The notes below the pieces were generated by a model. The model was not told where the DNA came from. It was given only the letters and a program-made list of their open reading frames with translations, and did not search any database. A DNA stretch of 64,000 nt, from assembly GCA_000002435.2 (NCBI GenBank), contig CM018793.1. One strand, 5' to 3'. How positions within the stretch are numbered: position 1 is the first letter of the stretch; the number at the start of each line of letters is the position of its first letter. Origin of the DNA: Giardia intestinalis. Lineage: Eukaryota. A program made the translations under genes and the position numbers. This document shows, one piece after another, positions 31,351 through 64,000 of the stretch.

Positions 31351-32802
31351 ATGGCTAATATAGTTCAGTTAGCCAAGCAACACCGAGCTATGGCCATTGA
31401 ATACGAAGAGAGGGGAGTATTTGTTGGAGCCATCCGCTCATATAAGCTCGCTGCGGAGGGCTTTCTGAAAGCCGCGATGTTCTACGAGGACAAAGTCTGG
31501 AGCGATATGTACAAGAAGCAGGCCATGGATATCATAACTCGTTTAGATCAGATACACGATGCTCAGGCCAAGGGTTTGCTACGACCCCCAAAGTCACCAA
31601 TTAGCGCCAATAAGAACGATGTGAGACAAGGTGCCCCTAGCAAGGAAAGTAAGGCGAGCGACCCTCTCAGTGCTGCTATTTCTAATGCAATCGTTCGTAT
31701 GAAGCCTGACGTCAAGTGGGACGATGTTGTGGGCCTGGAAAAAGCGAAGGAAGCTCTCAAAGAGGCCGTTATTCTTCCAATGATGTTTCCCCAGCTCTTC
31801 CAAGGCAAGCGCGAGCCGTGGCGCGGGATCCTCCTGTACGGATGCCCCGGCACCGGCAAGTCGTTCCTCGCGAAGGCGGTCGCTGCAGAGTGTGACGCCA
31901 CCTTCTTCTCTGTCTCGAGCTCGGACCTGGTGTCGAAGTACGTCGGCGAGTCTGCCCGCCTCATCAAGGCCCTCTTCGAGCTGGCCCGCGCAGAGAAGCA
32001 GGCCGTCATCTTCATCGACGAGATTGACGCCCTTGCCTCTGCTAGGGGCGGCGGAGAGGAGAGCGACGCGTCTCGCCAGATCAAGACCGAGTTCCTCGTG
32101 CAGATGCAGGGCGTCGGCAAGACCGGCGGGAACGTCCTGGTTCTGGGCGCGACAAACTACCCGGAGGCGCTCGACAGCGCCATCCGCCGCCGCTTCGAGA
32201 AGCGCATCGAGATCGTCCTCCCAGACGCCGCTGCCAGAAAGAATATCCTACGAAGTGGTATCGGCTCCACGCCTAACGTGTTGACAGATAGTGACTTTGC
32301 TGAGCTAGGAGAAAAGACAGCCAATTACTCTGGCTCCGATCTTAGTGTATTGTGCAGAGAGGCTCTCATGGTTCCGATTCGCGAACTACAGCGCGCTGAA
32401 TACTTCACTAAAAAGGACGGGTTCTACTATCCATGCGAAGCCAACGATCCTGGTGCAGAGAAGCTTTCTCTAACCGATTTCACACTCAATAGTGACGATA
32501 GAAAGCTCGGCGTGCCGCCGGTTACCAGGAGACATATGGACATGGCCCTGAGTACTACAAAATCCTCAGTTTCAAAAGCTGACATAGAAAGAATTAATAT
32601 GTTTTCCAAAGAGTTCGGTGAAAGTGGTGCCTATAATCCAGACGTAGAAGCAGAACCAGAACAGAACCCAAGCCATGATCAACCGAAGGCAGATTCATCC
32701 GCTTCTGCGGGGAATGCTGGTAAGAAGAATACATCTCCTGCAAAGAAGTCGCATTCGAGGGCATCTACGGGTGGATCAAAATCTGGAAAAACTTCCAAGT
32801 AA
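31351..32802 (+). CDS. VPS4: Vps4-type AAA ATPase (N-terminal MIT domain + AAA core); track start 31213 rejected
   Basis: MIT-like helices LAKQHRAMAIEYEERGVFVGAIRSYKLAAEGFLKAAMFYEDK. Walker A ILLYGCPGTGKSFLAKAVA, Walker B VIFIDEIDAL, SRH region LVLGATNYPEALDSAIRRRFEKRIEIVLP. The stop TAA is embedded in aAGTAAATa. Confidence 0.85.
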   Translation: MANIVQLAKQHRAMAIEYEERGVFVGAIRSYKLAAEGFLKAAMFYEDKVWSDMYKKQAMDIITRLDQIHDAQAKGLLRPPKSPISANKNDVRQGAPSKESKASDPLSAAISNAIVRMKPDVKWDDVVGLEKAKEALKEAVILPMMFPQLFQGKREPWRGILLYGCPGTGKSFLAKAVAAECDATFFSVSSSDLVSKYVGESARLIKALFELARAEKQAVIFIDEIDALASARGGGEESDASRQIKTEFLVQMQGVGKTGGNVLVLGATNYPEALDSAIRRRFEKRIEIVLPDAAARKNILRSGIGSTPNVLTDSDFAELGEKTANYSGSDLSVLCREALMVPIRELQRAEYFTKKDGFYYPCEANDPGAEKLSLTDFTLNSDDRKLGVPPVTRRHMDMALSTTKSSVSKADIERINMFSKEFGESGAYNPDVEAEPEQNPSHDQPKADSSASAGNAGKKNTSPAKKSHSRASTGGSKSGKTSK

Positions 32803-35350: not shown

Positions 35351-36076
35351 CTACTTCTTGCGTCCACGGCCCTGCACCTGCTCCAGTTGTGTCAATATCT
35401 TCTGTCCCTGGCCTTTGTCTCCACTGTGCTCGTCCATATAGCAGACATAGAACTTCAGCACGGTTTCAAAGAAGGGACAGGGGCCACATAGCGCGAGAAT
35501 AGAGCGCTGGAAGACGTAAAGATCGACAGCCATCGTCTCTGGGGTGATTGGCGACCTAGAGGCTAACCCAAAATCTATGACACTGAGCCTGCGCTCATCT
35601 CTATTATAAAGTAAATTACTTGTAGTCAGGTCGTTATGAACTATGCGAGCCATATGAAGCCTCGCAATGGTAGACCCTACGAGCTTTGCAAACGCCTCAT
35701 CGAATAATAAATCGGTGCTGTCAGCCAGGTGGGTGGAGACGGAGGAATCACGTATCCAGGACATGTATATACACCCGTTGGGCTCATCAACATAAAGCAC
35801 ACTAGGAACAGCTAGGCCAGCTGCGTGTGCCGCTTCCAAGGCTCGTGCTTCAGCTCTAGTTCGCCTCTGTCGAATCTGCCTGTCTAGTGCAGGGTGCCTG
35901 TATTCTTTAGGGAAGCGGTGCTTTGCGATAGCATCCTTCCCTGACGTGGACAGAGTCCCGGAATAGATGCGCGCCTCAGCGCCCTGAAATAGAAGGGAGC
36001 AGTTGTCCAGGGCTACGGTGAAGTTAGATGTGCCTGGAGGTCCCGTTTTCATTGCCGTGGTCCCAGATTCAATCAT
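35351..36076 (-). CDS. BUD32: Bud32/PRPK (TP53RK) atypical kinase of the KEOPS complex; track start 36118 is TTG, first AT-rich-context ATG at 36076
   Basis: LLFQGAEARIYSGT (Gly-rich loop equivalent), KHRFPKEYRHPALDRQIRQRRTRAEARAL, catalytic HNDLTTSNLL and IDFGLA. The size (~241 aa) is typical of Bud32. Confidence 0.8.
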   Translation of the reverse strand: MIESGTTAMKTGPPGTSNFTVALDNCSLLFQGAEARIYSGTLSTSGKDAIAKHRFPKEYRHPALDRQIRQRRTRAEARALEAAHAAGLAVPSVLYVDEPNGCIYMSWIRDSSVSTHLADSTDLLFDEAFAKLVGSTIARLHMARIVHNDLTTSNLLYNRDERRLSVIDFGLASRSPITPETMAVDLYVFQRSILALCGPCPFFETVLKFYVCYMDEHSGDKGQGQKILTQLEQVQGRGRKK

Positions 36077-36093
36077 TAAAACTTTTTGACCAC
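36077..36093. promoter_or_regulatory. 17-bp spacer between divergent ATGs of Bud32-like and the giant downstream ORF
   Basis: aaaactttttgaccac lies between the minus-strand ATG at 36076 and the plus-strand ATG at 36094. Confidence 0.4.
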
Positions 36094-39000
36094 ATGTTCC
36101 CCTCATTGCATTTGTCAATTAGGCCGAACTTTTCGCAGAGGAGTGTCATTGGTGTGGCCATCTACACCTACTCCACTCCCCTCAAGCTTCCCCTTCCCAT
36201 TATACCCATATTCTGCAGGTCTTCTATCATCAAACAAATTCTGCTTAATGGTATTGAATGCCCTTCAGAGGCTTTGTTTCCCATCAACCACAGCTTACTA
36301 TACTCGGCGGAAAGTGCACCGAAACCCTCAAAGTCTTACACCTCTCTTTTAGACCTTCAGGATCTCGTTTACACAGCGCGCACCGTCAGGTACCGTGTCG
36401 GGGACTTCTATTTAGATCTCAGCTCACTTCTTCCTCAGTTTGCTTTAGCGGAACAACTCAAGGCATCAAGCACGGCATTGGGTGGATCCCTGGACCCAGA
36501 CGCTACAGACACCGTCAAGGATCCGCTACACGCATCAGCTGCAGCCCCCCGATTCAACCTCATGACCATCACTATTATTTTCGAGACCTGCAACAGATCT
36601 CTTTTTATTGAGTACCCCAGTACCTCCACTCTCATGTCTGGACGGCTGAGCACAATGTTAGTCGTTGGAAACACTGGCAACTCAGCTGATTGGTTGCCCA
36701 TTCCATTGTTTTCTATGTCGGTTAGCCACAACATTACTCTTCAGTTCGCTTCGTTACCACAGGAGTATAGGCCAATCTGTGGGGGCCGGCTGTGTATCTG
36801 CAGCCGAGCTGGTAGTCAATCTCTTCCCGCTACACAGGTCACATGTGCCTCGACGGGATATCTATTTACGGATCTTTTCGGGAGTTTGCACAAGCTGTGC
36901 TTTATTATTGCACGTGCTAATGGATTTCTTCACATGGAACCCTTCCATACTCCAGATGCTAAGAATGTAAAAGATGGAACATCAGCTAATAGAAAGGAGT
37001 CTCAGCATAGCTTTGACTTCCTCAGAACAGAGTACCATAAGCTTATTGACCAGCACAGAACAATTAGTATTTACGAATTAGTGAGATTGTCACCAATTCT
37101 CCAAAGCATCTTCACGTTTCCTCATAACGCCAAAGATGGAGGGTTCATCGGGTTAAATCTCGTTTGCTATACATTAACAAATATGAGGCAGTACGATCTT
37201 TCTGCACAGGTGTATACTCTTTATAAAGCGTTTAGGCTGGCCATAGACTTCCTGTCACTCACACCGCACAGGGGCCGAAATTTCAATATTGCTATCTTTT
37301 TTGATGGCTGTGGTCGCACGATAATCGGAAATGGCATCATTGTTATCCCACTGATGCCCTGCAACTATATGGCTGCATGCATGAGCTATATGAGGGTTAT
37401 TTCCGAGGTCGTCGCCAAGTACATATTTGGGGTTCACGTTCCCGCTGCAGACTACGCTAGTCAGCCCGTATGCACGGTTCTTCAGCAGGCTCTCATGCTT
37501 CACATACGGCACGCGTTGCTTGGTGCTGTGGATACTCGTCGGTTCTATTACGAAGTGAGCATTCGAGGGGCGTCGGAGGTTTCCGCGTCAAGTCCTGCAC
37601 TTTGGCATCAGTACCTTACGCATGATGTTGAAGAACGGTACAACCCAGGCCAGTTTTACCTCCATCACATCAAGGGAGCTCTCAATTATGGCTTGTATGG
37701 CACACCAATGGATAGGATTGATGGCCTCTTGAAGAATGTTGGCTGTACATCCAAAGGCACACTGAACGCCAGCATAAAAAAGGCATCAATCAAGGCACCT
37801 GCGTGCATAAGTCATCTGGAGGCAGTCTATAACTTCTTAGATACTTCTTTCGGCACATCCTACAGCGTAAAGCCAAGCAATAAAAATGTATGGTTAGCAG
37901 AAAGTGACAAGGATCGCTTGCACTTTCTGAACAGTCAGGGATCATATAAAAGCGCAAATTTGAAGCTGAAGAAAGGGAAAAAGTCCCATGCCTCAAAGTC
38001 CCACGAGTACTATCCGTCCGATTGCCAGATTTATACCACACATTTAAAGGAAACAAATCCTATTGAGGTTGCTGCGCTGACAGCAGACAAGTCTCGATGG
38101 TTTAATCATAATACTCTTTACAATGTTGATTTTCTATTGAATTTGTATCGATCAACAGCCGCAACAGCTTTCACACAGATGGGTGCACTCACTAATAAGC
38201 ATGTAGAAGATCTTGCGCAGACAACTATCCATCATTCCAAACATGCAGTCTCATTGGATCCAGATAACTTCTCGCTCGGCAATTCCTTTTCCTCTCCTAC
38301 TATGCCGCGTAAGATGGGGATGCAGCTCTCAACGGCACTTAAGGTAGACCAGTCTTTTGAGGTTGATGATGTTGTGACAGATTTCGGTGTAGACATTGAT
38401 AGTCAATCGGCAGCATCAAGTTCAGTTTTTGCTGGAGGAAAGCAATCTGGAACGTTCCGTAGCGTCGATACCCAAGCAGCATATACACTGTACGGCACTC
38501 AGAAGTCCGGGATTCTCAAAGGAAGCCAGTACTCGGCCAATATGTCTGACGGAGTAGATGGCGATTCAGCCCTTCTACTGTCGCTTAAGCGACCCATGGA
38601 TGCATGCATTCAATCACTGGCCAACTCTCTTTGCCTGGACATGGAATCGCTGTCTTTGATGTACTTTTATATTAATGAGCCATTCTTCCCCATAGCATAT
38701 GCGGTTCCCGAAGATAAGATCCGCACCCGTGCAGAGATTATTGGGATGACCATCAGGAACAACCTCACTACTCAGGGTTTTCGCAGCTTTCTCCAGAGCT
38801 TTCTTGACATAGGGTATGTGCAAATTAATTTGTTCTTTAAGTTCCTGGACGAGGTTTGCTCAAATAAAAGCTACTTCACCGGGGGAACGTGGCTTAAGAC
38901 AGTAGCAAGCGATGCACCAGACATTTCTCCGGAGAAAGATGCAGGGGTTGACTTTCCGGATCCTAACCTTTCACTTTTGCCCGACACAGGTGAGTATAGT

Positions 39001-42000
39001 TTGAACATCACAGTACTAAAAGGAGCCGCTGGAGCGGGTGAAGGCTTCTCTGCTGAGCAGTACAAGTTGGGCCACGAAACGCTTCATGCCAGTTTTTCTT
39101 TAGATGCTTCTTTACGTGAAGCCTCTTTTGACCCTAGAGCTGATATTGAAGGTGTTTACGCTAGTATGTCTCCTACAGCACGACTCGGTGACGACGGATA
39201 TAATAAGCTCGAACAAAACCAAAGCGACACACAAGCAGCTTCCAGTCCTCATCCATTTACATTTCTAATCCACAAATTGGGTATTATGCCCAATTACATA
39301 TCAATAGCATACTCCTGTCAGCAGGATAGCACAAACAATCAGTTCACAGACCAATTTGATATCATTCTCTTAAATATGACTACAGGGCTAACAGACTGTT
39401 TAAAAGACACATGCACGAAAATAGGTCTACCATTAATCAATAGAGGAGAGTCTGCGGCTGGATGCAGACGCTTGCTATTCTTCCCCAACATAGAAGGGCC
39501 ACATGAGTTCAGCAAGAGCTACGATTTTACTACTTTTAGAGGCACTATGGCATCGGATGCTAACCTTGCGGTGCATGAAATTACTGACATGCAGCATGCG
39601 GAAAGACACGATAGCCGCTCCTTCACAGTTATAAAAGGCGCAAGCAGCAACCTTTATGCTAGCATTCATATGCTCCAGCAGCCGGGACGGATGGGCAGTG
39701 GTGGATCCGGGACCTTGAGCTTTAACCTGTTGACAAGGATTGGAAGTGAGTTTCTAGAGAATATAAAAGCTGAAACCTTTATTGAGAAGAGCTTTTACGA
39801 TACTATCAAGACCAAGAAGTTTGCACACGTGATTATAGACCCTTATAATCAGCTCCCGTTTGCATATAAGCACCACTATGCGGAAAAGAACGATAAAGAT
39901 AATAACAATTGCTACAGATCTATCGCCAAGGTCGATTGTGAACGAGACATAGCTGTGCAGCTAGAGTCTTTGAACTCACTTAGCTATAATTGTAACAATG
40001 ACGTCATTCCCCTTCTCTTGGGTATTCTTTATTCTGAGGCAGTAGCACCAGCACTCCAAGAGACCGCGTTCAAAATTCTCATCTATAAAATAACCCGCGA
40101 TAACTTCTATGAGGCTGTTAACAAAGAAATGAGCCGTCTTGAAATGAATAGCAAGGTTAAAGAGCAAAAGCAGTGGATTCTCTTGTTGAACATATACTTC
40201 TTCGGCCATAGACGCCTGTTGAACGCATTTCCCATTCTTCCAGATGGGTACACCGGGCTAACGGCACACAGATATGATCACGAATGCATTATGAAGCTAG
40301 ATGTAGGATCGTTGGTCGCTTATGCCCTGCTGTGTGGGTATGTCTCTATGTCCAAAGCCACTGACCTGCTCTCCTTGTTAAACAAGGACAGTGATACTGC
40401 CTCCTCTAGTCACGCACTAACGATAGCGGTTCTTCAGGCACTTACCTGGCAAATAATCCGTAAAGTGATCGTTATTAATACAGAAGTCTACATGGTCTTG
40501 CTCATCTTCATCAACTTTCTTATTAGCAACGCCACTATGATCTCTGTTCGCCGAATGGCCATTTGCTCGTTGACATTAATCGTATCGACGGCCTGGGAAA
40601 ATCCTGGAGTAGCGACTGCTCTTATTGATCTTTTCAATGAAAAGGAGCTTATTTCGGAAAAGATACGCCTCCTTATTAGTTGCTTATTTGGTGGTGGTTG
40701 TTGCGACCAGGATTTGCATGCTATTAGACCCAGTTTGCTCGATACAAAAGATCGTCCTAGATGCTCCTGTAATTGCTGCAACTGTGCACTTATAAACAGC
40801 GATAAATCACTCGGTCCCTTTATTATTATAAGGGTGATTTTTGTCCACATTCTGTTAGATATCATAGATTTATACCTTGAGAACAATAGAAATTCATCTG
40901 AATCCAGTATGGACGCGACACACCTGCATTACTCTCCAGCTGTGGCCGGGATGTTCATCAGCCGGGAGGTTGTGGACGAGTGCTTCCACTGCCTGGACTT
41001 GCTGGGAACAAATAACTACATGACCTCCAGCGACTCAACCGCGTACATCGTCCAGCCGCTCTCGAGCCGCTTCGTCGCGGCCCTGTACAGAGGGACGGTC
41101 TACTCCCAGACACACAGCATGGACCCGTGCAACCGCTACGCCATGTCCAACGCGGAGGCGCTGGTCTTCATGATGGCCTACGTGACCCATCTCTTCACCC
41201 TTCCCCTTAACGAGTCCAAACAGGTTGAGTGGGACGTGCTGCGCGGGTGCCCCGTATGCCTCGTCAACGGGGGCTGCCGGTGCGTACGAGTGAGCTGGCC
41301 TGCCGTCAGGAGCCCCGACTCAAAGTCTGCCCCACAGAACTACGTGACCGTTCGGTGCCTGACGTCGGACTTCTTCTGGACATACGAGCAAAGCTCTAGC
41401 AGCTATGCTAGCCTTGAGGAGTACTTCGATAAGCATTACGTGGCCCAGGACCCCATCACAGCCGCAGTGTTTGAAAACGGCAGGCTGGTCAACGCCCACT
41501 TCAATCCCAAGAAGCGCTACGACGCGGTCCTGTTCAGACGAGCGGACAGGGCGGACAGAGAAGACAATAGCACAAACCCCGAGCCCCGGGCGAGCTCGTG
41601 CTACCCGGAATTCATGCTTCCGTGCCTCTACAACCCGACCACGCGCATCAACTATCCCGGGTACCTATTCAGACAGTGCCTCTTCGACGCCGCGGGCTGC
41701 ATGATCGGGCAGTCTGTCGCATCCCGGCTCATCGACATGCTCTTGTATCCGGCAGGGCCCCGGGTGCAGCAGAAGGAGGAAGCCGGCGATGCCTGCACTC
41801 CCGCCGCCTTAGAGTTGTTCAAGAGAGCAGCAGGATTTGGAGAAGACATGCCACTTCTTATCCTTAACGCCATCAGCACGCTGCACGGCGTGAATCTCCT
41901 TAGGGCTCTGCCGCCCTCTCAATTCGACAGTGAGGCAGAGATCGAGGCCCTGGCAGAGCACCAGAGGACGGCATCTTTCAAGGACGCACTGCTGGCAGCA

Positions 42001-42207
42001 ACGCACAGCCACAGCGAATACGTCAACGTTATGACGACGTTCTGCGAAGAGAATGTCACGCTGAAGGCGGGAATGAACGACAACGTGTGCAAGATGGAGC
42101 ACAACATGGGGTACCTCATCCACGCGCGGTATGAGTCGTCCAACGACCAGGTTCGAGGAACGGTGCTGCGGTTCGCTGGATTTGTAATAGGTTACATGCC
42201 CAACTGA
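36094..42207 (+). CDS. Giant hypothetical protein (~2037 aa; first ATG 36028 rejected as it lies inside the Bud32 CDS)
   Basis: 6.1-kb uninterrupted ORF with no recognisable catalytic motifs. The 3' ~1.3 kb (from ~40.9 kb) is far more GC-rich than the rest. Confidence 0.6.
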   Translation: MFPSLHLSIRPNFSQRSVIGVAIYTYSTPLKLPLPIIPIFCRSSIIKQILLNGIECPSEALFPINHSLLYSAESAPKPSKSYTSLLDLQDLVYTARTVRYRVGDFYLDLSSLLPQFALAEQLKASSTALGGSLDPDATDTVKDPLHASAAAPRFNLMTITIIFETCNRSLFIEYPSTSTLMSGRLSTMLVVGNTGNSADWLPIPLFSMSVSHNITLQFASLPQEYRPICGGRLCICSRAGSQSLPATQVTCASTGYLFTDLFGSLHKLCFIIARANGFLHMEPFHTPDAKNVKDGTSANRKESQHSFDFLRTEYHKLIDQHRTISIYELVRLSPILQSIFTFPHNAKDGGFIGLNLVCYTLTNMRQYDLSAQVYTLYKAFRLAIDFLSLTPHRGRNFNIAIFFDGCGRTIIGNGIIVIPLMPCNYMAACMSYMRVISEVVAKYIFGVHVPAADYASQPVCTVLQQALMLHIRHALLGAVDTRRFYYEVSIRGASEVSASSPALWHQYLTHDVEERYNPGQFYLHHIKGALNYGLYGTPMDRIDGLLKNVGCTSKGTLNASIKKASIKAPACISHLEAVYNFLDTSFGTSYSVKPSNKNVWLAESDKDRLHFLNSQGSYKSANLKLKKGKKSHASKSHEYYPSDCQIYTTHLKETNPIEVAALTADKSRWFNHNTLYNVDFLLNLYRSTAATAFTQMGALTNKHVEDLAQTTIHHSKHAVSLDPDNFSLGNSFSSPTMPRKMGMQLSTALKVDQSFEVDDVVTDFGVDIDSQSAASSSVFAGGKQSGTFRSVDTQAAYTLYGTQKSGILKGSQYSANMSDGVDGDSALLLSLKRPMDACIQSLANSLCLDMESLSLMYFYINEPFFPIAYAVPEDKIRTRAEIIGMTIRNNLTTQGFRSFLQSFLDIGYVQINLFFKFLDEVCSNKSYFTGGTWLKTVASDAPDISPEKDAGVDFPDPNLSLLPDTGEYSLNITVLKGAAGAGEGFSAEQYKLGHETLHASFSLDASLREASFDPRADIEGVYASMSPTARLGDDGYNKLEQNQSDTQAASSPHPFTFLIHKLGIMPNYISIAYSCQQDSTNNQFTDQFDIILLNMTTGLTDCLKDTCTKIGLPLINRGESAAGCRRLLFFPNIEGPHEFSKSYDFTTFRGTMASDANLAVHEITDMQHAERHDSRSFTVIKGASSNLYASIHMLQQPGRMGSGGSGTLSFNLLTRIGSEFLENIKAETFIEKSFYDTIKTKKFAHVIIDPYNQLPFAYKHHYAEKNDKDNNNCYRSIAKVDCERDIAVQLESLNSLSYNCNNDVIPLLLGILYSEAVAPALQETAFKILIYKITRDNFYEAVNKEMSRLEMNSKVKEQKQWILLLNIYFFGHRRLLNAFPILPDGYTGLTAHRYDHECIMKLDVGSLVAYALLCGYVSMSKATDLLSLLNKDSDTASSSHALTIAVLQALTWQIIRKVIVINTEVYMVLLIFINFLISNATMISVRRMAICSLTLIVSTAWENPGVATALIDLFNEKELISEKIRLLISCLFGGGCCDQDLHAIRPSLLDTKDRPRCSCNCCNCALINSDKSLGPFIIIRVIFVHILLDIIDLYLENNRNSSESSMDATHLHYSPAVAGMFISREVVDECFHCLDLLGTNNYMTSSDSTAYIVQPLSSRFVAALYRGTVYSQTHSMDPCNRYAMSNAEALVFMMAYVTHLFTLPLNESKQVEWDVLRGCPVCLVNGGCRCVRVSWPAVRSPDSKSAPQNYVTVRCLTSDFFWTYEQSSSSYASLEEYFDKHYVAQDPITAAVFENGRLVNAHFNPKKRYDAVLFRRADRADREDNSTNPEPRASSCYPEFMLPCLYNPTTRINYPGYLFRQCLFDAAGCMIGQSVASRLIDMLLYPAGPRVQQKEEAGDACTPAALELFKRAAGFGEDMPLLILNAISTLHGVNLLRALPPSQFDSEAEIEALAEHQRTASFKDALLAATHSHSEYVNVMTTFCEENVTLKAGMNDNVCKMEHNMGYLIHARYESSNDQVRGTVLRFAGFVIGYMPN

Positions 42208-43367
42208 GCAGCACTGAGACCAGGAGGCAGCAGCTCGTGCCGGCGCCAGTTGTCCCTCACAAGAGAAAGCGCCTCGTCCCTGGATAGGCTGCGCTCAGAC
42301 GCAAGAACCTCAATCGCGGTCGCCATTGACCTGTCCCAGTCGTCCTGGTCCTCGCGGTACCAGTCCGTCTCCAGAAGCAGGCACTCCTTGTCAGACTTCC
42401 GTATGCACGCCCGGGTGGCCTTGTTTGCCTCTGTGAAGTGGGACACGGAAAGGAGCACGCGTCCGTGGCATGTAGAGACGGCAGCCTGCAGCTTGCGGAA
42501 TGTCTCGTGGGTCCCGTTGTAGGAGTGCATTATAATGCTGCGATTGTAGCTGGCATACTTCCTGGCCATGGCCTCCAGCTGCTCCGTGAAGATAGGCCAG
42601 AGGCCAGGCTTACGAGAGATGATGTGGACGTTGCAGTCCCTGTTCATCTCGAAGGCCATCTCCAGCTGCGGGGAAAAGTAGCGGGTCTGTGTGTCCAGTG
42701 GAGAGTCAGCCAGCGCGGCCGGCCGAGTGTCCAGGCCTATCTCCCCCACAAACGCGGTCTGGTCCGCAGCCAGTCTTGCTCTGACTTCAGCCAGTGTCGC
42801 TGCAAGATCGGGGTGCATGTGCAGGTAGTACGGGTGCACTCCGTACCCGACTCGTACAGAGAGGGGATGGATCCTCCTGAACTCGGCAAGGTCTTCGAAC
42901 TGAGTCGGGTCTGTGGCGTTCAGGAGATAGACGTGGTCCGGCCTGAACCAGGTGCCGACAAACGCCGAACTGAAGTGGCAGTGAGCGTCAAGCATTTTAA
43001 GTGTCGCCCCTGGGGGCATCGGAGAGATCAGCGTGGGTCTGGAAGAACCGTCGGACGTCCTCAGCAGTAGCAGGGGCTCCTCGAGCTGGCCGCTCCGCTG
43101 GCGGTGGGCCTCGGACGACAGGTGTTGCACCAGGGCCAGGGAGTCCTTGAAGGCGAGATCGCACAGCGTGCACCTCAGACAACCGCTGGATGCACGCTTC
43201 CCGTCGTCGATGACGGTCTGGGTGCCAGAGAGGGCGACCAGCTGCGCATACCTCGACATGCGGACGGTGTCCGTGCGGTCAATTTTCGTTGGTCCATTCA
43301 CTCCTATATCTCCGGACGCTTCACCGCGCCAGGACCTAGAAGGGCTCTGGCGGTACGTATCCTTCAT
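42192..43367 (-). CDS. TatD-family metal-dependent nuclease with N-terminal C2H2 (U1/matrin-type) zinc finger
   Basis: Zinc finger CLRCTLCDLAFKDSLALVQHLSSEAHRQ. TatD motifs LDAHCHF, GEIGLD, HIISRKP, IIMHSYNG and LLETDWY. Overlaps the 3' end of the convergent giant ORF by 16 nt. Confidence 0.75.
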   Translation of the reverse strand: MKDTYRQSPSRSWRGEASGDIGVNGPTKIDRTDTVRMSRYAQLVALSGTQTVIDDGKRASSGCLRCTLCDLAFKDSLALVQHLSSEAHRQRSGQLEEPLLLLRTSDGSSRPTLISPMPPGATLKMLDAHCHFSSAFVGTWFRPDHVYLLNATDPTQFEDLAEFRRIHPLSVRVGYGVHPYYLHMHPDLAATLAEVRARLAADQTAFVGEIGLDTRPAALADSPLDTQTRYFSPQLEMAFEMNRDCNVHIISRKPGLWPIFTEQLEAMARKYASYNRSIIMHSYNGTHETFRKLQAAVSTCHGRVLLSVSHFTEANKATRACIRKSDKECLLLETDWYREDQDDWDRSMATAIEVLASERSLSRDEALSLVRDNWRRHELLPPGLSAAQLGM

Positions 43368-43561
43368 CTGTGCGTTTTTCTTCTCACTTATCTCCCTTAT
43401 ATCTTAGGGATACTTCTTTCTGGAGGACTTAGAAGCTACCAATAGGGCAGAGAAGTTAGAGGTTAAGGAAATGGAGGCAAAGCCATTGATGACTGATTTA
43501 TGACGTTGTTTGCACAGCAATTATCACAGGCTTAGGAGACATCCCCCTGTAAGTAGGAAAC

Positions 43562-44233
43562 TCACGAGACAATGAAGCTATTGATCCACGTACACAGGTC
43601 TTTCTGCTCGGCCAATGAACAAAAAATATCCGCTACGCTCACCCCTCCTGGAAATCTTTTCATCATATCATTAATCTCTTCGCCAAAAACGTCTATTTTA
43701 TCGGACACGTGTGTAAATAATAACTTATCATTTTTCGGAACTTTGATCTTCTTTTCGGCCTCTACCAGGGTTTCGTTGACTTCCTCTGAATTGGACACAA
43801 TATCCTGAAGCTGTTTCAGTGCTTGGTACTGACTATTACTAATGGCTTCGACTCTATTCTTGGCACTTTTTAGTTCGTCCCGCAGGCGGTGTAGCTCCAA
43901 GTCAAGCTCGTACGCGTACTTGTAGTGAGTAGCGAACGCTGCGATATGGCGGGATGTCTCTTCTGCAAATTCTCTGTAGAGCTGCTTAAGCTTTGAGAGC
44001 GCCATCTTGCTGGGCGGCCCCTCAGACGCCCTAGTTAATTGATCTGCGGCACCACTTGCCGAGTGAACCAGTCCTGGCTTCTGACCAAAGTTGAAAGCAG
44101 AGCTTGTTGTGTTCAACTGTGAGAGGCCTAGCTCACTCCCACTCAATGGAGCCACCCCGAATCCACCGGTAGACCCTCGAGATAGGTCCACCGCCGGTGC
44201 CAACGAGCCCCCGAATGAGAAGCCGCTCTGCAT
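43562..44233 (-). CDS. FG-repeat + coiled-coil protein (central-channel nucleoporin-like, Nup62/Nup54/Nup58 class), 223 aa
   Basis: N-terminus MQSGFSFGGSLAP...GGFGVAPLSGSELGLSQLNTTSSAFNFGQKPG, with four FG/GF dipeptides in Gly/Ser-rich context. C-terminal ~130 aa is heptad-rich (LKQLYREFAEETSRHIAAFATHYKYAYELDLELHRLRDELKSAKNRVEAISNSQYQALKQLQDIV). Minus-strand context gaaagatttttattaATG. Confidence 0.5.
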   Translation of the reverse strand: MQSGFSFGGSLAPAVDLSRGSTGGFGVAPLSGSELGLSQLNTTSSAFNFGQKPGLVHSASGAADQLTRASEGPPSKMALSKLKQLYREFAEETSRHIAAFATHYKYAYELDLELHRLRDELKSAKNRVEAISNSQYQALKQLQDIVSNSEEVNETLVEAEKKIKVPKNDKLLFTHVSDKIDVFGEEINDMMKRFPGGVSVADIFCSLAEQKDLCTWINSFIVS

Positions 44234-44265
44234 TAATAAAAATCTTTCGCGGAGAGCAGCTCGCT
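44234..44265. promoter_or_regulatory. 32-bp spacer between divergent ATGs (FG-protein gene and giant membrane-protein gene)
   Basis: taataaaaatctttcgcggagagcagctcgct. Track start 44197 (GTG) would overlap the opposite gene, so it was moved to ATG 44266. Confidence 0.4.
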
Positions 44266-47200
44266 ATGCTGGAGGTCTTCATCTCCGTTTTTGTTTTTCT
44301 TCGACATCACTCCTTTGATGCTAGCCCTGCTGTTTTACTAATGTCCATCTTTTGGGTTATTGCCGGTACCACACTACTGCTGAGCCCCCAGCTGGGTTCG
44401 CCTTATCTTCTAAGCCATTACATATATAACGTCATAATGTCTATGCTTTTGATAAAAGATGTTTACTTTTTTCCCAGCAAGGCGAGTGTACTGCTCCTTC
44501 TAATTCCTCTTTTAAATTTACTTCCATTATTTATGATAATCTTGATAAGATTTTTTACTCCACGTCCTCCTAACACCTTCATTTACATATTATGTTATTT
44601 AACGCAAATTTTTATGTTTCTGTGGCTAGAAGGCTGTGGGCCGTATGCGTTTTACAAGTTGTCCGGGTCGCTGGCCCTTTTGCTCAAGCGCATTGCGGAA
44701 GGTATCGCCACCAGGGGGTTTTTTCCTGCCATCTTTAGCACCGATTCTCTTGTACTAATCTACTATAGCGTGCTTACCGTGTTCCACTACCAAATCAATC
44801 TATCCTTTATGCATGCCCAGAACACTGCAGCCATAAGGGAAACAAAGCTGTTCTTTGCGCCCTCGTTCATTCCTCTGCAGCGGTTTCGTCTACTTTATCT
44901 CATTTCCTTGATCGTCCAGCAGTTCTTTGAAAACATAGTCTTTTCCATCTACTTTGTCTATTGCGCTCTGGTCTTTGTTAACGCTTATCTCATTGCTTCG
45001 CGCGGTTCGCTCTCCCATGTTCACAACGGTCCCTGGATAACCCTATCCCTTTCAACCTTCATTTTATTTTACAGCTGCTACAATATATTAATAACCATAT
45101 TTCCGTTGATCGTAGGTAAGGTCTCTAGATACAGTACTCTTTTAATGATTTGTCTACCAATCTCTTTGGCTGTTTCAGTCGGTGTGACTGTAACGCTCCT
45201 TGTGCTCGGAAAACGAATTAGGATAAACGTCATTAACGATCATAAGCGGATCAAGGTACGGCACTCTTCTAGCTTTCGTGGACGACACAGGTGCCTTACA
45301 ATCAGACTTCTGTCCACCATTCCGGCAAAGAATGTTAGCGTTAAGGTTCTGACTTCAGATGGCCATCATCCTGCCATGCAGAAGGACACTGCTGTTCTCC
45401 TGGATCCTACTGCAATCCAGAACTATACCCTTCATACTCCTCTCTCTAAATCTATGGTGATGATATTGGCGTTCTATTTTGACATTCATACAGTCGCTAG
45501 CTTTGTTTTACCAAATGACTACACGTTCACAACCGATGATATCAATAGCTTGGTGTACCTCATAAAGGATAGCAAGTCCACCAGGCGTCTGCCAGAAGAG
45601 CGCGTCAAGGAAAGACCAGGAGCACATCCCAATTCTATTGTTTCTTTACCACAGCTGCATAGCGACGCGAACAATCTAATCGGCTCCCCGCCCCTTACCA
45701 GCTCTATTGTGGATTCATCAAATATTGAGCGGCCACGTTCAGCCAGTGCTACCCACCGACATACCACTTTCCTACACCACGCCTTTTCAATTCCCGACAC
45801 TAGCCTCACCATGAATAGAGAGGCACTGGCGGTTGAGCACTTGGTGAGCTGCTCGACAGATGCACCAGCGCCCTGTTACAAGTCATCGAATGACGCTCTC
45901 ACTTATCCATCTAATAGCTCGTCCGAAGACTCGCCCAATTTGTATGGCATATCAGCTACACAAGGCGCTAACTGCCCGTTGCCAACTGGACATACATCCA
46001 AGGCTTCGACCACCCCTAAAACGGGCTGTGAGACACCAAAAGAGCTTCCCCTTACGCCAAATCAAAAGATTTTTAGGGATTTTCTGGGCACATTAGACCC
46101 TCAGAAAATCTTCACATATGTTGTACAAGCAGAGAACCTTCTAGAGGATTTCAGACTTTTCTATGAGAATATATATGCATCGCTGTTTCTTTCTTATTGC
46201 GCTGCGTCGCAAACTTTAGAGTCTATGACGTTACTGGACATTGAGGAATGCCTGCCTATCCCTCTTCTTTTACGCTATCTGCGTGCATGGAAGACGCCTA
46301 GTGACGCATATAACAGTATTATATACTACATTGATCAGTTAAAGAGCGTAGACGACTTGAAGCGGGAATACCAAGCAGCGCGAGCCACCCGTCGAGAACT
46401 TGAACATGCATCCACTGCCCCTAATGCAACGCGCAGCCTTACTCTCAAGCCCATTTTCGTGGAAGCAAGGAAAATACCATCTTTCACTTGTAGCAACTCG
46501 TGCACAAACTGCCCTCGGTGTAGGGTACACGCAGTCTGCAACCACTGTCATGCAAAAATAGCAATCCTTCTAAAATCCACATTTAACTTTGTTATGGGGA
46601 GAATGAAGACAGATAAACCGCCATCTAGAGGCTTCAATTGTCCAGATTGCAATCGGCCATGTTCGCTCAAGATTGTAGAGTCACTCTCAAAGAAACAGAA
46701 TAGGAAGATCCCCGGCACAACTCTGCACACCACATCTGTCAAGCCAAGGATACCTCAAAATTACACAACATTTCTAAACAAATTGACCCCTCTTGGGCGG
46801 CGCATTCAAACACCCACAGCCTACTCCAGAAAAAAGCTACCAGCCGTGGACTTCTTAAGCTTTGAGACTGTATCAGAGCAAACAGACGCAAACCTACCTC
46901 ACTCTCGCCAGCATTCAAAGCGCTTGTCGCGGGATGTTGTGCAGTTATTACTAAAGGCATTTATAAATGACATGGAAAACAGCATAAACGAAGAGACCCC
47001 CATGATATGCGAGTGGGCCACACAAAAGTATGCGTCCACTAATGCTACTGATCAGGCCAGTCTCGATGCAAAGCAGCGGCCAAACTCAAACACAGACTCT
47101 AAGATGTTTTCCCGAGATCAAAATATTGGACTTCTGCACAAGAGTTACTCCGTCATCTCTCCTCAGAACTTCAATGGATCAATCTACTTTTTATCGCCCG

Positions 47201-57688: not shown

Positions 57689-60600
57689 ATTTTTTTAGAT
57701 TAATAGTGAATTATTTAGATTGGAATTTATTCAACACTCATTTTTAGATTAAAGATCAAGAGTAAAGGGTTGATAAGTTATGTTTCTAACGTTAGTCGTA
57801 TCTGTGCCTTGGCTCTATTGGCCTGTAATGTGGAGTATATGAAGCGTCGTGACATGGTATGCCAAGAAGCGCCCGGCGAGCAGGTATGCGCTAATAACCA
57901 TGGAAAAAAGCACTAGGGCTCTAAGGAAAACATGACCACGCGCGCCTAAGTTTATGAGGGAATTGCCTAATAACAAGTCCATTAGAAGCAAATTGATCCG
58001 AAGGAATTCAAAGATGCCTTGAAAGACGAACCTTCCCTGATAAGCATGTTCATCCGATATCTAAAAGTGTTACTTAATATACGAATTCTGTGAGATAAAG
58101 GGTAAAGGGGGCACTTTCTTATAAGATATGAATCATGTACTAACTGCTACAGATTCTTCTGACCTGGAGATCCTATGCTAATGATCTTTACTATGTATTC
58201 ATTGTGACTCTCAGACCATGGTATGTTGATTTTCTTTGGCAGTCTTCCAGACATGCCTTACGACGCGGGCCTCTGCCTGCTGGCCCTTGCTGCGGGGGGA
58301 CGCCCTTGCCGTAGCGCCCTGGTGGCCCGCGTCGCCGCTGAGTGTCCGCCGGCGCGTAGAAGACGAGGCAGGCCGAAGACGGCCTCCGTTGCCGGACGGG
58401 CGACGCACGGAGAGCATCCTGCCTCTAGCGCTATGCGTTACAGCAGGCTCGGCGAGCTGCCCTGGTGACCTCTAGTCTGTCCAGGCCAGCTGCAAGAGCG
58501 GGGGACTCGAAGGAGACGAGCCTCGTATGTTGTGGGCAGATGACATCCCGGACTAGCGATAGGAGCATGCTATCTAAAGCCTGCTCTCGAGCTTTGTAGG
58601 AAGAGCCTGGGATCTGGATGGCAGAGGCGCGATCGTGCAGATGCTTCGGGCCAAGCGGTGTGTTCGCCTAGCCATTGAGTGTGCTGAGTACCTCGATGCT
58701 GGTCACAGCTACCGGAGACTCGCAACAGAGACAGGCTCTGTGCAGTTGCTTAAGAGTTCTCGGTGCAGCATCAGATTCCCCGTACTCTTTCGATGACCAA
58801 GTACAGGCTGCCCGATGGTTCTAGATTTCAAAAGAAGAGGCTCCTCTGCCGGTTTGCCTATCTCGCACGACGGAGAGAGCAGTTGGGGCTATAAGGAACA
58901 TCGCAAGCGGCACTACTCAGGCCTGCTGGCTCCCTATAAGCACAGAAGAGAACCTTTTAGGTTCTGAGAGCATCTCGGGGGTCCTTGCCATACGCAGCAC
59001 GATAATTGAGAGCATCGCCTCCATACTGCAACTAGCAGGGTAGCTCTGCCGCAAGTGCCGAACCTCCCCAAAGAGAAGAATATAGTGATGAGACATCTGG
59101 ATCTCTGCACATTCTGAGAGCCTGGCTTGAGATACTAGCTGCTGTGCCCTTCGGTATCTCTGTGAAGCAACGGGCACTGCCACGGTGCCCGTTCACTGTC
59201 CCTGTGCATTCTTCGGCACGTGACAAAAACCACACAAAAGAGGCTGCTACTGGCTATGATATTGCCGATAGAAATTCTGACACCATTTACTTCGACCGAG
59301 TGAAGAGCGCAGGCCCGCTTCTATTCTCTCATAGAGGAACTTGGCTCTAGAGCTTTGATCTCTGTTCACACCTATTGGCCCCTGTGATCTGGCTTTTGTT
59401 CGGGGACGCGCAGATAGACCGTTTACAATAGATCGCGTCCGCGGCTTCTAGCCTTCGACAAAAGCTTAGCGACCGCCCAAGTATGTCCAAAGGACAATAG
59501 CAAAGAGAAAGCATACATGCTCAGATACACGGTCACACTGGATGTACTCGACTTGCCTGACGACGGTGATAACCCAGCCATTCAAGCAGGGAATACTATG
59601 ACCGCGAGTATAGAAGAAGCACCCTATCCAAGGGTCTACACTTGCTGATGGCACGGTGGTGCCCGTCCAACCACTTTTCTGATCCGGACTGGAGTCCCTG
59701 CCCACCTCTCTGCGCTGCATGCTCTGTTATGCAAGGGTCTCTGCACAGAGTCCGCTTGCTCGGTAGGACCGGCCAGTCCAGCAAGGCCGCATGTAAGCAT
59801 CAGTAGAGCTAGCCTTCTACCTTCTGCATCGATAAAGATCCGCCTTGAAAGGAGATGGATCGGGTACTAGAAGAGTAGACTGTCCGTCGAGATATCCGCG
59901 TCTTGAATTCCGTGGCACTATAGGTAGTGACTCTCGATCTCGATCTCGGTCACGGAAGACCGAGAGGAGGAGTGGCCCTCGCAGAGAAATCACCGAAAAG
60001 GCTGGGCCGCAACAGCGTTAGAAGCTACATTGCACAGCCTTCCAGCGTATGTTCAGCATGTCACCAGCGACGACTAGCGGGGACTACAAGATGGCGCGCT
60101 GCAGCAAATCTCGGCCTGCCGTCAGGTCTCTTGGGGCCTGGGTCTGACATGTGCGCATCAACATCAGAAGGATATGCATGCGTACTACAAGGGCCTAGAA
60201 AAGATCGTTGAGGATACTCTGCCGGGTATTAAAGATAAGAGGGAGCCATTTGCGAAACTAGCGTGCACGTAATATAGTCGGGTGGGCACATACTGGATAC
60301 CTGTTAAGAGAACGCTGCTTTATGCTAACGCATTTTTGGGACCACAGAAGAGCACTTCGGACGATTCTAATAAGGGCACAACCATACTCGTCAGGGCTGG
60401 CAGATGCTTCTCTTAAGTCTAGGCACTTCGAGACATCTCAAGCGATCGAGCAAAGAGCTCTGGGATTTTGTACTAAGGTTATGCTTAGACTGAAAGAGGC
60501 GAAGGAAGGATCCACAAACCATAGTGTTGTCTGTTAATAGAAGGATGCCTTGGGCAGACTCTCTAGAACATCTATCAGCGTGTATCAAAACTGATCTGCA

Positions 60601-63600
60601 GCATAGTACGGCTTAATTTTAGGAACTTCTGTCCAGGCTATGGCATGCTAAATATAGTCACTACGTAAGAAGATTGGTTTTCAGGGTACCACATTGCGCG
60701 CAATACACAGTGTGGTTCATTGGAAAATTTGTGTCTAATCATTGTGGCAACAGGGCTTCCATCTTGGTAGGTCATTGTCTGGCCAGTAACAAGACTTGCT
60801 TTCGATTCAGAAAAATGAGCGTCTAGGAAAAAATCGCGCACTCCAATGTGCATAGACACTCCGCCCGGCCTATTTTCCTGGGCAGAGCCACCTGTTGGCG
60901 CCTGCGTTGCATATGCCAGAGTTGGAAGGGGCCTCGAAGAAGCCAGCAGCTCACCATGGCTATTGCTGAGGAGCTGGATCGGATCCTCTGTGGCCTGTGC
61001 TATGCTAGGGAAGAACAAGCTGAGGGACGCAAGATCTTAAGCAAGGGCCCGTTGTTCTTACCGCTACGACGGACTACATTAATCATTACGCTTGAGCCTT
61101 GATTACGTCCTTAAAGCAATACTATAGCATAGCAGCAGAGACTGTGAGAATGCTAACTGACCCTAGTAATATATGCTATTGCTAGTGCAGCCCCAGGAGT
61201 GACGTGTCCTTTCTATTCTGCTATGTTACTCTGCACTGTTGCGTGTCACTTCCCACGTCTGGGGCCATGGATCACAGCAGCGAGCCATTGGGCCGCTCGA
61301 AGATGTGCTTTAATTATTCCGAAGGTGCATGGCCTTCGTTATCTGTCTGGATCAGTAGATGAGCCAATATTCTGGCCATTGCGGCTAAAAGTTCCCACAT
61401 GATCTTTTGTGACCCAACAGTACACGACCAGTAGACAGCCAGATGGGTTATTGCCGGTCCATTCTCCACCCTGGGCTAGATGGGCGCGCATCCTCAGCAG
61501 AGTGGGCTCCCCTGGAACTTCTGTGGTCTCAGATCATTTAGAGCATTCTGGGAGCATCCTTGATTCAAACTTGCATTAGACAAGCACGAACCGTTACATG
61601 ACTCAGAGGATCTCTAACTGCTCGACTACCCTACAACCAATGGTCAAACAGGCATTACAATGAGCGCGCCGGAATATCGGTTAATAGCTGTAATAATTGT
61701 GTCATCGATAGTCATCTAGAACGCTACGCTGCAGCTAACATCAAGGAACGCACTTCTGGAAGTGCCGCAGCCCGTTCAGCCACGGCTTCTGCTACCCTCA
61801 GGCCTAGTCAAATTGCTTCGCCAGGACAGAGAGTCATATGACTCCACAGTAGGTAGCTATGCGGCTCTCACCAGGACACTCGGCTTAGGCCAGCAACTGA
61901 TTCAACTTCCCTAACACGGGAACGCATGTTGACCCACTTCGCAATACGCAGTATGGCATCTTTTGAGCGTCGTCTTTGCACTTTGATGCACGGGAGAAAG
62001 CTTCCTGTTTCTGGCTAATTGGCACAGTGTTCACCGTACACTACACCCAGACCCTGCTTAGTTTCTGTGCATAACGCTTATCAGTGCTAGCAGGCGCAAT
62101 GAGTCTGCTATGGGCCGGGCATTCGTGGAACTGTAGACTGGCACAACGATATTCCAACCGCCGTATACTTCTGTGGTCAGAAGGCCTGGACAAACATACG
62201 AACTAAGCACCGTCTCTTAGGCGTTACTGCAGTAGCAGATCGGGTAGAGAGGACGGGAGGAGACCTGGGCAGAGAATCAGACATGGATCCAATTGAGTTT
62301 GGCTGCAAGGGCTATAAAGACCGGGATCGTACAAACAGCAAACGAACTTCTCCAGTAAAAAATATGCAAGACGAAGCATGGGCCTGTGGGAGGGTGCCAC
62401 TCCTATGGTCAATTACGATTAGCTTAACTCATTAGGATGAATAGGACAGTTTCTTCAATGTAGCCCGCCTAATGAAAAGATAATGTGCTAAATACTGCTC
62501 CACAAATAGATTTGTGTAAGCAGCCATGCGTGGCGTAAGGTAATTACTTGTAAACAGATACAAGTAGGGAGATACGTTGCTAATTTTAACGGCCTGACTT
62601 TGCGGAAGGCAACTTAATACCTGTTATGCAGGGGGCAGCTGACTGATGATTTATGCAACCCTGTATTTGGAGAAAGATACCTTGTGAGGGTCAGATAGTT
62701 TTCAGCCATACGCAATCTGACACCAACCGGTAGATCCTCTGATTCTATCGCATTCTGGTCTACCTCTATCTCTTTGCGTCTCTTCCCATTACCTGGACGG
62801 CCTATCTTTTTGGATACATCATGGCAGCTTTCTAGGCCTGCAAGATGCCTCAAAGTTTCTGCTTGAAACTATAGTAATTCGTACCTCTCGATGACGGTGC
62901 GTACTAGAGCTGAGTACCAACTACATATTGTGGTGGTTGTCAACGGAAGCGATACTCTGCGTAGTATCTCTTAAGCTTGCCGTAACAGGCCCCATAGATA
63001 TAAAGGCCACATGTAGTCTCCAGAGAAGCCCTTGAAAGTATCTGTGTTTGGTGACACAACGCACCAGAAACGAAGGGGAACGCCAAAGCGTCGTATGTTG
63101 AGTCGAAATAAGCCAATCTAATGGCTAGGGGTTTGGAGGCTACTTGATGCATTAGTCGTACACGGATAACAAGGAGATCGGGCTTTCATGCGTACAGGAG
63201 TCACTATCTCGGTCAGCTACTGTCTTCTATCGTTTGGCTCTAGGCCCCTAGTCTGCACTCATTATGAAGGGCCCCCTGCATTCGCGGTATAGGATTTGCT
63301 TTGTGTTCAAGCCATTGTGATCCTTATGGATCTGCTGTTGAGGAAGACCGAGCGAGCAGCCACTAAAAACCATAATAAAGAAATAGGGTCTGTGATCTTT
63401 CCACGCAAGCCACCGCCACCCTGGGCAAGCGGGTATCTCCCACCCTTGCATGGCTGAGATCCACAATCCACAATCCAGAATCCAGAAATTGAAATCTGAA
63501 GTCTGAGATCGGATGTCTTCGATCTCGGCAGGAGGAGAAGAAGTTTTGTTCTGCCGCTCGGGAGTCTCTGCTGCTTCTCGCGGTGTCTTCTGAGGATTCA

Positions 63601-64000
63601 TCCCATCCTTTGGCTCGTCGGGGTCACTACCGTTTGGCACCAGTGAGCACACACTATCTCAGGGTCCTGCGTCAGTCGCGACGGCAAGCTTGGCCTTGAG
63701 GGAGCAGCTGACCCTGGTCATGTACTCCAAGGTCTTGGTTCTCTATGATGAAGATCGCATGCCATGAACTTCGGGATATCAACCTCTAGTTCTTCGAGGT
63801 GCTTCTTCGTCTTCTCACGGATTGTATCATCGGTCCCGAGTATGATCAGAGGGTGCGCTCCCCGTGCGCCTCTATCTTGGAGTCATAGTACGCGTTTGTG
63901 GATGTCGATGGAGCACTCCCATGTGTTGTGTCGGGGAAGAGGCTCGGCCCTCTGCTCATGGATCGCAGTGCGCTCTTGCAGGTGGTCCGTCACTCAGCAC
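57689..64000. other. ~6.3-kb region without any long ORF (longest 134 aa); includes a ~280-bp GC-rich island at ~58.24-58.52 kb
   Basis: The six-frame track shows only scattered 60-134-aa ORFs on both strands. This contrasts with >85% coding over the preceding 57 kb. No tRNA cloverleaf, rRNA, RT/endonuclease motifs or long repeats were recognised. Confidence 0.5.
63459..63510. repeat. Degenerate heptamer tandem repeat (ATCCACA/ATCCAGA/AATTGAA/ATCTGAA/GTCTGAG)
   Basis: atccacaatccacaatccagaatccagaaattgaaatctgaagtctgagatc read directly from the sequence. Confidence 0.55.

Follow-up and report, generated by a model that had tools for sequence, protein, structure and literature searches.

A GC-rich block spanning the 3' end of a giant Giardia intestinalis gene coincides with the homogenised tract of a dispersed duplicate

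A 64-kb stretch of the genome of Giardia intestinalis WB (assemblage A), referred to here as the window, contains a block of GC-rich sequence that begins within the giant gene GL50803_112295, on the 4.02-Mb chromosome, and continues through the convergent gene of a TatD-family DNase into a zinc-finger open reading frame (ORF) (Table 1). The TatD gene overlaps the end of the giant gene by 16 nt. The block is copy 1 of a dispersed duplicate, the contents of which are the 3' 432 codons of the giant gene, the TatD gene and the zinc-finger ORF; alignment of the right edge leaves the first seven codons of the 391-aa ORF (43,348–43,367) outside the duplicate. It can be said with high confidence that the block is a duplicate, that its copies evolve in concert, that the GC-rich state coincides with the tract over which they are homogenised, and that all classes of site are affected.

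Table 1. Coordinates of the block and of the features within it, in positions of the window.
Feature	Coordinates	Strand	Basis
Copy 1 of the 2,484-bp dispersed duplicate (block)	40864..43347		Edges of homology to copy-2 contigs and P15
Unhomogenised left edge, 45 nt, AT-rich, 15 fixed copy-specific differences	40864..40908		Variant table, A1 and A2
Homogenised core (GC-rich tract), GC 0.60, GC3 0.75–0.78	40909..43347		Change-points and lineage-grouped variants
Giant gene GL50803_112295	36094..42207	+	Annotated at 2,037 aa; mechanical ORF from 36,028
3' 432 codons of the giant gene, also present elsewhere as a truncated ORF	40909..42207	+	Protein cluster and contig comparison
TatD-family DNase core, 275 aa	42192..43019	-	Pfam PF01026, E = 5.6e-22
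Upstream part of the 391-aa ORF, with zf-C2H2_jaz motif	43020..43367	-	PF12171, residues 64–89
G-run, lacking 1 nt in the window relative to A2, E and B	43076..43082		Alignment and three-frame translations

The GC profile was computed in 200-nt sliding windows and its edges were placed by maximum-likelihood change-points. GC content is 0.375–0.445 in windows up to 40,999, 0.535–0.66 (mostly 0.57–0.64) across 40,900–43,399, and 0.40–0.47 past 43,399. The step from about 0.44 to 0.60 falls at 40,911 and the drop back at 43,354, with log-likelihood (lnL) gains of 53 and 45. At 0.598, the GC content of the block is approximately 5.7 standard deviations above that of the other 2.4-kb windows of the stretch (mean 0.473, standard deviation 0.022, maximum 0.537). 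Within the giant ORF the GC content of third codon positions (GC3) rises from 0.476 to 0.784 at codon ~1638, while that of first and second positions (GC1 and GC2) is nearly unchanged, the shift in composition there being chiefly one of third positions. The convergent ORF (42,192–43,367, minus strand) has a GC3 of 0.65–0.87 along its whole length. Overall, GC3 is 0.75–0.78 in the two ORFs of the block, against 0.43–0.61 in the other 22 large ORFs of the window.

An earlier note on this DNA had described an abrupt boundary near 40.9 kb, a high-GC state lasting to about 43.4 kb, coverage of the last ~430 codons of the giant ORF and of the TatD gene, and a protein frame that stays open. Computation of sliding GC and GC3 bears this out: the profile is not uniform, both change-points are where they had been expected, the GC-rich part of the giant ORF comes to 432 codons, TatD is GC3-rich throughout, and the ORF from 36,028 to 42,207 is uninterrupted. 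Three of the four out-of-frame ORFs listed in the same note were found among ORFs of at least 90 aa, with 41,598–41,867 falling under that cut-off. These ORFs are probably compositional artefacts, a by-product of the scarcity of stop codons in GC-rich DNA. A gathering-threshold Rfam scan of 40,000–44,500 returned no match, so a GC-rich structured RNA does not account for the block.

A repeat search of the window found no second copy of the block within its 64 kb. The second copy is seen on other contigs, five of which (L004, L005, L006, L008 and L009) match the window from exactly 40,864, giving a razor-sharp left limit. The right limit is set by assemblage E (P15), where homology to the window stops at 43,347/8 and the right flank differs; the copy-2 contigs L004 to L006, from Logan, end at 43,336. 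At the protein level, the short members of the 90%-identity cluster of the giant gene match exactly its GC-rich part, aligning to residues 1613, 1628 or 1642 through 2059. These include GL50803_0060539 of strain WB, a 418-aa protein that is 99.8% identical to residues 1642–2059 and encoded on the same chromosome as the giant gene, as well as DHA2_154357 and GLP15_4374 (447 aa each), several 432-aa ORFs, and assemblage B ORFs of 321–345 aa. Rather than being genes in their own right, GL50803_0060539 and its homologs are truncated duplicates. The earlier suggestion of a segmentally acquired block therefore holds in the sense that a dispersed segmental duplicate exists in two copies, of which this is one.

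The order of genes at copy 2 is a DEAD helicase, a 959-aa gene, two ankyrin genes (Ank837 and Ank970), the truncated ORF, TatD and the zinc-finger ORF. This left context is conserved in assemblage A (L004, L008), in A2 (L009) and in assemblage B (L010), and the junction with the ankyrin-side flank is orthologous between A and B. Sharing of the same copy-2 junction by A and B places the duplication before the split of the assemblages. In E the truncated second copy, GLP15_4374, is on another contig and has the same start residue, although it has been seen as protein only.

The copies are near-identical within each lineage and 12–25% diverged between lineages. Copy 1 and copy 2 share 98.9% identity in WB-like assemblage A, 99.0% in A2-like assemblage A and 99.4% in B, and in E the two proteins are 100% identical over the 432-aa core and 91% identical to A, whereas identity of the block between lineages is about 88% for A and E and about 77% for A and B. 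Such near-identity within lineages, in a duplication older than they are, argues for repeated interlocus gene conversion. Variants in the core cluster by lineage and not by copy, the window and L004 to L006 standing against L003, L008 and L009, which indicates that conversion has been ongoing since A1 and A2 split. These sequence comparisons show that the two copies have been homogenised time and again by interlocus gene conversion and thus undergo concerted evolution.

The 45-nt left edge provides the contrast. Its variants (40,870–40,904) cluster by copy in both A1 and A2, and divergence between the copies is about 33–38%. The edge has escaped homogenisation and shows the drift that is expected of the copies otherwise. 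Likewise, all 10 mismatches between the two P15 copies lie in the first 15 residues. In assemblage B, paralogy starts at the equivalent of window position 41,153, with 100% identity after this point and none before it, and copy 2 is without the first ~290 nt of the A-type duplicate.

The GC-rich state has the limits of the homogenised tract. The change-point at 40,911 is 2 nt from the tract start at ~40,909, and that at 43,354 is 7 nt from the tract end at 43,347, a right edge that lies 20 nt inside the TatD/zinc-finger ORF. The unconverted 45 nt are AT-rich, though coding in copy 1. In E the GC3 step is at codon 1583 (support 1581–1587), which is the core start, and copy 2 has the same GC step at its own left edge, with flanking genes of GC3 0.43–0.50. 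In B the step is weaker, from 0.39 to 0.57, and its support, codons 1617–1654, includes the B paralogy boundary. The segment that is duplicated only in A and E (40,909–41,152; 72 aligned codons) has a GC3 of 0.33 in B, 0.85 in A and 0.79 in E. GMRT_10490, the G. muris ortholog of the giant gene, has a flat GC3 of approximately 0.6.

Orthologs of TatD are found in A2, E, a B-like sequence, the Giardia lineage represented by contig L012, and G. muris; the G. muris protein has 46% identity and further matches are more distant. GC3 of this gene is 0.75–0.76 in A, A2 and E, against 0.49 in the B-like sequence, 0.48 in L012 and 0.51 in G. muris, where the neighbouring genes are mostly at 0.57–0.70. 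Since the GC-rich state is bound to the tract and is absent from some of the TatD orthologs, it follows the homogenised tract rather than the genes. The strong enrichment arose in the A+E lineage. It had been noted earlier that orthologs showing the same gradient would indicate a conserved codon-usage domain. This is so in part: E has the same step, but in B it is weaker and displaced by 290 nt and in G. muris there is none. A gradient that is only partly common to the orthologs points to a process linked to the junction rather than to such a domain.

The enrichment is not confined to synonymous sites. For TatD, GC1, GC2 and the fraction of GARP amino acids (glycine, alanine, arginine and proline) are 0.59, 0.44 and 0.27 in A and 0.62, 0.43 and 0.29 in E, against 0.50, 0.39 and 0.21 in B. 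Across the A and E sequences GC1 ranges from 0.59 to 0.62 and GC2 from 0.43 to 0.45, compared with 0.47–0.50 and 0.37–0.39 in the low-GC3 orthologs, and GARP amino acids make up 27–29% compared with 19–21%. Amino acid replacements that separate A from B raise GC at the first two codon positions more often than they lower it in the block (79:22), whereas in the flank the two are nearly balanced (130:115; Fisher p = 1.2e-5). The enrichment is also strand-symmetric, since at four-fold sites G has risen as much as C, with a C/(C+G) ratio of 0.49 in the block.

GC-biased gene conversion (gBGC) is, on balance, the probable cause of the GC-rich block. Under this mechanism, heteroduplex DNA would have formed during ectopic recombination between the two copies, and mismatch repair in it would have favoured G/C over A/T, raising GC3 in the two copies jointly from about 0.45 to about 0.8. 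A strand-symmetric pressure on all sites that is limited to a recombining tract is what gBGC would be expected to leave behind. Enrichment is indeed limited to the recombining tract, including the lineage-specific tracts of E and B, and it is found irrespective of strand and codon position, both of the convergent genes being enriched. We infer the past GC bias from this pattern of composition.

Several results weigh against gBGC or limit how far it can be taken. With A1 and A2 compared and polarised by E, an excess of A/T-to-G/C (weak-to-strong, W-to-S) fixations was not found in the block, where there are 12 W-to-S and 39 S-to-W changes (flank, 63 and 67), implying an equilibrium GC of 0.31 against the present 0.59. 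Variants that have spread to both copies, and hence have passed through conversion, are 8 W-to-S and 33 S-to-W. Comparison of A with E, polarised by B, does lean W-to-S (equilibrium GC 0.57 in the block and 0.47 in the flank), but not significantly (p = 0.135) and with a proneness to mis-polarisation: divergence of B at four-fold sites is about 50%, and sites that reverted following a burst towards GC would be counted wrongly as W-to-S. No weight is placed on this lean. Assemblage B has two near-identical copies, yet its GC3 rises only from 0.39 to 0.57 and its TatD is unenriched; homogenisation alone does not therefore guarantee GC enrichment. Codon models with a uniform G/C boost (lnL -831.7) and with a tilt to 'optimal' codons (lnL -828.3) did not separate. 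Finally, the right limit of copy 2 in assemblage A is drawn from the contig ends and from comparison with P15.

Most of the enrichment looks historical, and is best placed either in episodes or on the stem of A and E. In assemblage A, conversion of recent date appears to be wholesale copying with no detectable GC bias, and the tract is at present slowly losing GC. These recent events may be long gap-repair conversions, which copy without choosing between alleles. Of the GC-biased gene-conversion tract offered in the earlier note, the conversion tract itself stands, with GC edges within 2–7 nt of its limits, while its bias is read from composition and the recent substitutions run in the opposite direction.

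The main alternative to gBGC is a GC-ward mutation bias linked to recombination, in which repeated repair of breaks, or copying from one copy to the other, would of itself introduce mutations with a G/C-ward spectrum. This predicts the same pattern, confined to the tract, strand-symmetric and present at all codon positions. However, changes private to one copy, which are nearest to the raw mutation spectrum, number 7 S-to-W and 3 W-to-S, and the 39:12 ratio of all recent changes in the block likewise indicates that the present mutation input is AT-ward. Repair synthesis is not known to have a GC-ward spectrum. Mutation bias is therefore unlikely to be the cause.

Somewhat less likely again is translational selection, whereby TatD, the truncated ORF of copy 2, or both would be highly expressed in A and E and conversion would have exported their optimised codons to the 3' end of the giant gene. 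The optimal codons of Giardia all end in G or C (PMC8393687), and in TatD a tilt to the 'High' codon set beats a uniform boost by 7 lnL units. In A, moreover, the GC-rich state and the truncated ORF begin at the same codon, and in B they begin close together. In the giant-gene part, though, the uniform G/C boost is better by 4 lnL units. Four-fold sites do not show the C preference of highly expressed genes, the C/(C+G) ratio being 0.49 in the block and 0.56 in the flank compared with 0.61 in the 'high-expression' codon set (Table 4 of PMC8393687). TatD is low in GC3 in G. muris, in the B-like sequence and in L012. The truncated ORF of copy 2 has no ATG at the position of the copy-1 methionine of A, this codon being GTG in L004. 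The GC step is inside a gene and the GC-rich state covers two genes on opposite strands, and the expectation of a synonymous-only effect does not agree with the shifts in GC1, GC2 and amino acid composition described above.

A foreign or introgressed block, acquired by horizontal transfer or from a GC-rich Giardia lineage, is very improbable. Sharp compositional edges are typical of acquired DNA, but G. muris has orthologs of both TatD and the C-terminus of the giant gene, and the nearest homologs of TatD are from Giardia. Divergence of the block ranks the lineages as that of its flanks does (98% identity between A1 and A2; 88.5% and 85.1% between A and E; 77% and 75% between A and B), contrary to the horizontal acquisition considered in the earlier note. 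In addition, B has the duplication, with the same junction, but is not strongly enriched in GC, and an introgressed tract would need to end less than 10 nt from both limits of paralogy.

Still less probable is a gene fusion, in which a GC-rich gene that once stood alone would have become the C-terminal ~430 codons of the giant ORF. Neither part of the giant ORF, before or after the boundary, has a Pfam domain, so the question is not arguable from domains. GMRT_10490, of 1,687 aa, is colinear with residues 702–2054 across the boundary and has the same C-terminus, and E and B also have the full-length gene; the full-length gene is thus ancestral. Stand-alone ORFs of 418–447 aa with the C-terminal sequence do exist elsewhere in the genome, but they begin at the duplication edge and are truncated copies, while the orthologs are full-length. 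Least credible of all is an assembly chimera at ~40.9 kb in the reference: although a 2.5-kb repeat can mislead assemblers and draft assemblies have discordant flank combinations, the giant ORF is open over the junction and matches a colinear G. muris protein, and the same left junction is in the independent assemblies L003 (an assemblage A metagenome scaffold), L001 and L013 (P15), so the junction is genuine.

GC enrichment of concertedly evolving duplicates has been attributed to gBGC in mammalian histone and Hsp70 paralogs and in the arms of Y-chromosome palindromes. As in those systems, the Giardia paralogs are near-identical through interlocus conversion and have GC3, and to a lesser extent GC1 and GC2, above that of the single-copy flanks irrespective of gene boundaries. 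The Giardia block differs in having two dispersed copies in a tetraploid protist without observed meiosis, and in that one of them forms the 3' end of a live gene of 2,037 aa. Its GC edges agree with the tract limits to single-digit nt and its lineages serve as an internal control, whereas its recent substitutions have no W-to-S excess.

Within Giardia, gBGC in ribosomal DNA (rDNA) arrays (Escobar et al. 2011, as cited in PMC10123126) is put forward there as one suggested reason for the very GC-rich rRNA genes. Like the block, the rDNA is a multi-copy recombining sequence that is far GC-richer than the genome. It is, however, a subtelomeric tandem array under structural RNA constraints, whereas the block is protein-coding and has two copies, and the link to recombination is conjectural for the rDNA but comes from direct comparison of paralogs and orthologs for the block. 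Heterogeneity of GC3 in Giardia is ascribed to translational selection in PMC8393687 and in the 65-gene study that it cites (its ref. 34). The block resembles genes under such selection in its GC3 of ~0.75–0.8 and its richness in 'optimal' G/C-ending codons. Unlike them, its high GC3 starts in mid-gene, spans two convergent genes, is accompanied by shifts at non-synonymous sites, and is absent from the B, L012 and G. muris orthologs.

Duplicated regions make up 6.9% of the WB assembly (PMC7000408, 2020). The present duplicate is similar to those in being short and holding a couple of genes, and GL50803_0060539 is annotated in the long-read WB assembly. That study reports neither a compositional effect nor concerted evolution across assemblages for the WB duplicates. 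In a search of the literature on gBGC, gene conversion and duplication in Giardia, and by gene identifier, this locus and its effect were not described. GC enrichment of concerted duplicates is well known in other eukaryotes; in Giardia it was found only as a suggestion for the rDNA.

Giardia is a tetraploid, binucleate parasite whose capacity for recombination has long been debated and whose low allelic heterozygosity is unexplained. The locus is a base-resolved example of frequent gene conversion between two loci, continuing since the split of A1 and A2. It suggests that a process linked to recombination, and not codon choice linked to expression, can raise GC3 from ~0.45 to ~0.8 and change the composition of proteins. 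Controls are built into it, these being the unconverted 45-nt edge, the shorter tract of B and the unduplicated-looking genes of G. muris. A high GC3, or a 'high' codon adaptation index (CAI), should not by itself be taken as a sign of high expression in Giardia genes. The wider implications are modest, but the example is well controlled.

The flanks of the repeat are combined differently between isolates. In WB and in L003 the giant-gene side is joined to genes of 223 aa and 3,924 aa. In DH (L009, AHGT01000098.1) it is the ankyrin side that is joined to the 223-aa and 3,924-aa genes, and in P15 (L013, ACVC01000201.1) the giant-gene side is joined to a 1,659-aa gene that L011 also has, with ankyrin genes beyond. 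The WB, L003, DH and P15 contigs are free of Ns. These differences are either inversions through recombination between inverted copies or joins made by assemblers over the repeat. The core in the DH contig has almost no fixed copy-specific sites, so that paralog-specific variants cannot show chimerism there. A 2.5-kb repeat is a likely place for mis-joins or for real inversions in draft assemblies.

It is possible, although doubtful, that the copies are inverted repeats on chromosome 5 forming a recombination hotspot that flips the intervening segment between isolates, the GC spike being the footprint of GC-biased heteroduplex repair. On this tentative reading, with left and right flanks numbered by copy, WB would be 1/1, DH 2/1 and P15 1/2. 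If it is true, the variation of GC3 among Giardia genes that has hitherto been put down to translational selection would in part record how intense recombination was in the past, and in this organism of disputed sexuality that intensity could be read genome-wide from the duplicates.

One contig has a different context again. L005 (1–1,271; logan:SRR2642195) has the block and only 88 nt of the copy-2 left flank of L004, to which it is 100% identical. Beyond these shared 88 nt there is a proteasome-subunit gene in place of the ankyrin gene. L005 may represent a third copy, may reflect a rearrangement particular to one strain, or may be a chimeric unitig.

The shorter G-run of the window fuses the zinc-finger ORF in frame to TatD, generating the 391-aa ORF, and this is so for the window copy only. 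The sequences compared were A2 (L003, L009), E (L013) and B-like (L011). Outside the window copy, the zinc-finger ORF (87–123 aa) overlaps the start of TatD by about 23 nt in another frame. Gene calls in L003, L004 and L009 are of 275 aa and 112–123 aa with a 23-nt overlap, which suggests that the WB-like copy 2 (L004) also has the longer G-run. Either a genuine variant of copy 1 or a homopolymer error in the reference could account for the difference. The A2, E and B-like sequences all share the same C-terminal tail of the zinc-finger ORF, EEPPATAEDVRRFFQTHADLSDA (L003 ~16,841–16,910 and the equivalents in L009, L013 and L011; window ~42,994–43,080). This tail and the N-terminal extension of TatD are read from the same DNA in different frames, and, judged from sequence conservation, the overlap seems to be a dual-coding one that has been conserved.

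From its mechanical start, the giant ORF shares 91 nt (36,028–36,118) with an ORF for a RIO-type kinase on the opposite strand (35,351–36,118, minus strand). The start is at 36,094 in the current annotation and at 36,154 in metagenome gene calls. In G. muris the giant gene is followed not by TatD but by a gene for a CEP131-like coiled-coil protein (L002, L014), and TatD is on another chromosome, downstream of an LSM gene and without the zinc-finger ORF. Only in G. intestinalis, therefore, are the giant gene and TatD neighbours. Contig L012 (logan:ERR3333380) is from a Giardia lineage that is 72–74% identical to both A and B in the block and has an extra gene, for a 522-aa kinase-ankyrin protein, between TatD and a 213-aa gene. 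Milder rises in GC (0.53–0.56) are present elsewhere in the window at 31,500–32,500, 58,000–60,000 and 63,500–64,000, the first of which covers an AAA/Vps4-type ATPase gene with a GC3 of 0.575.

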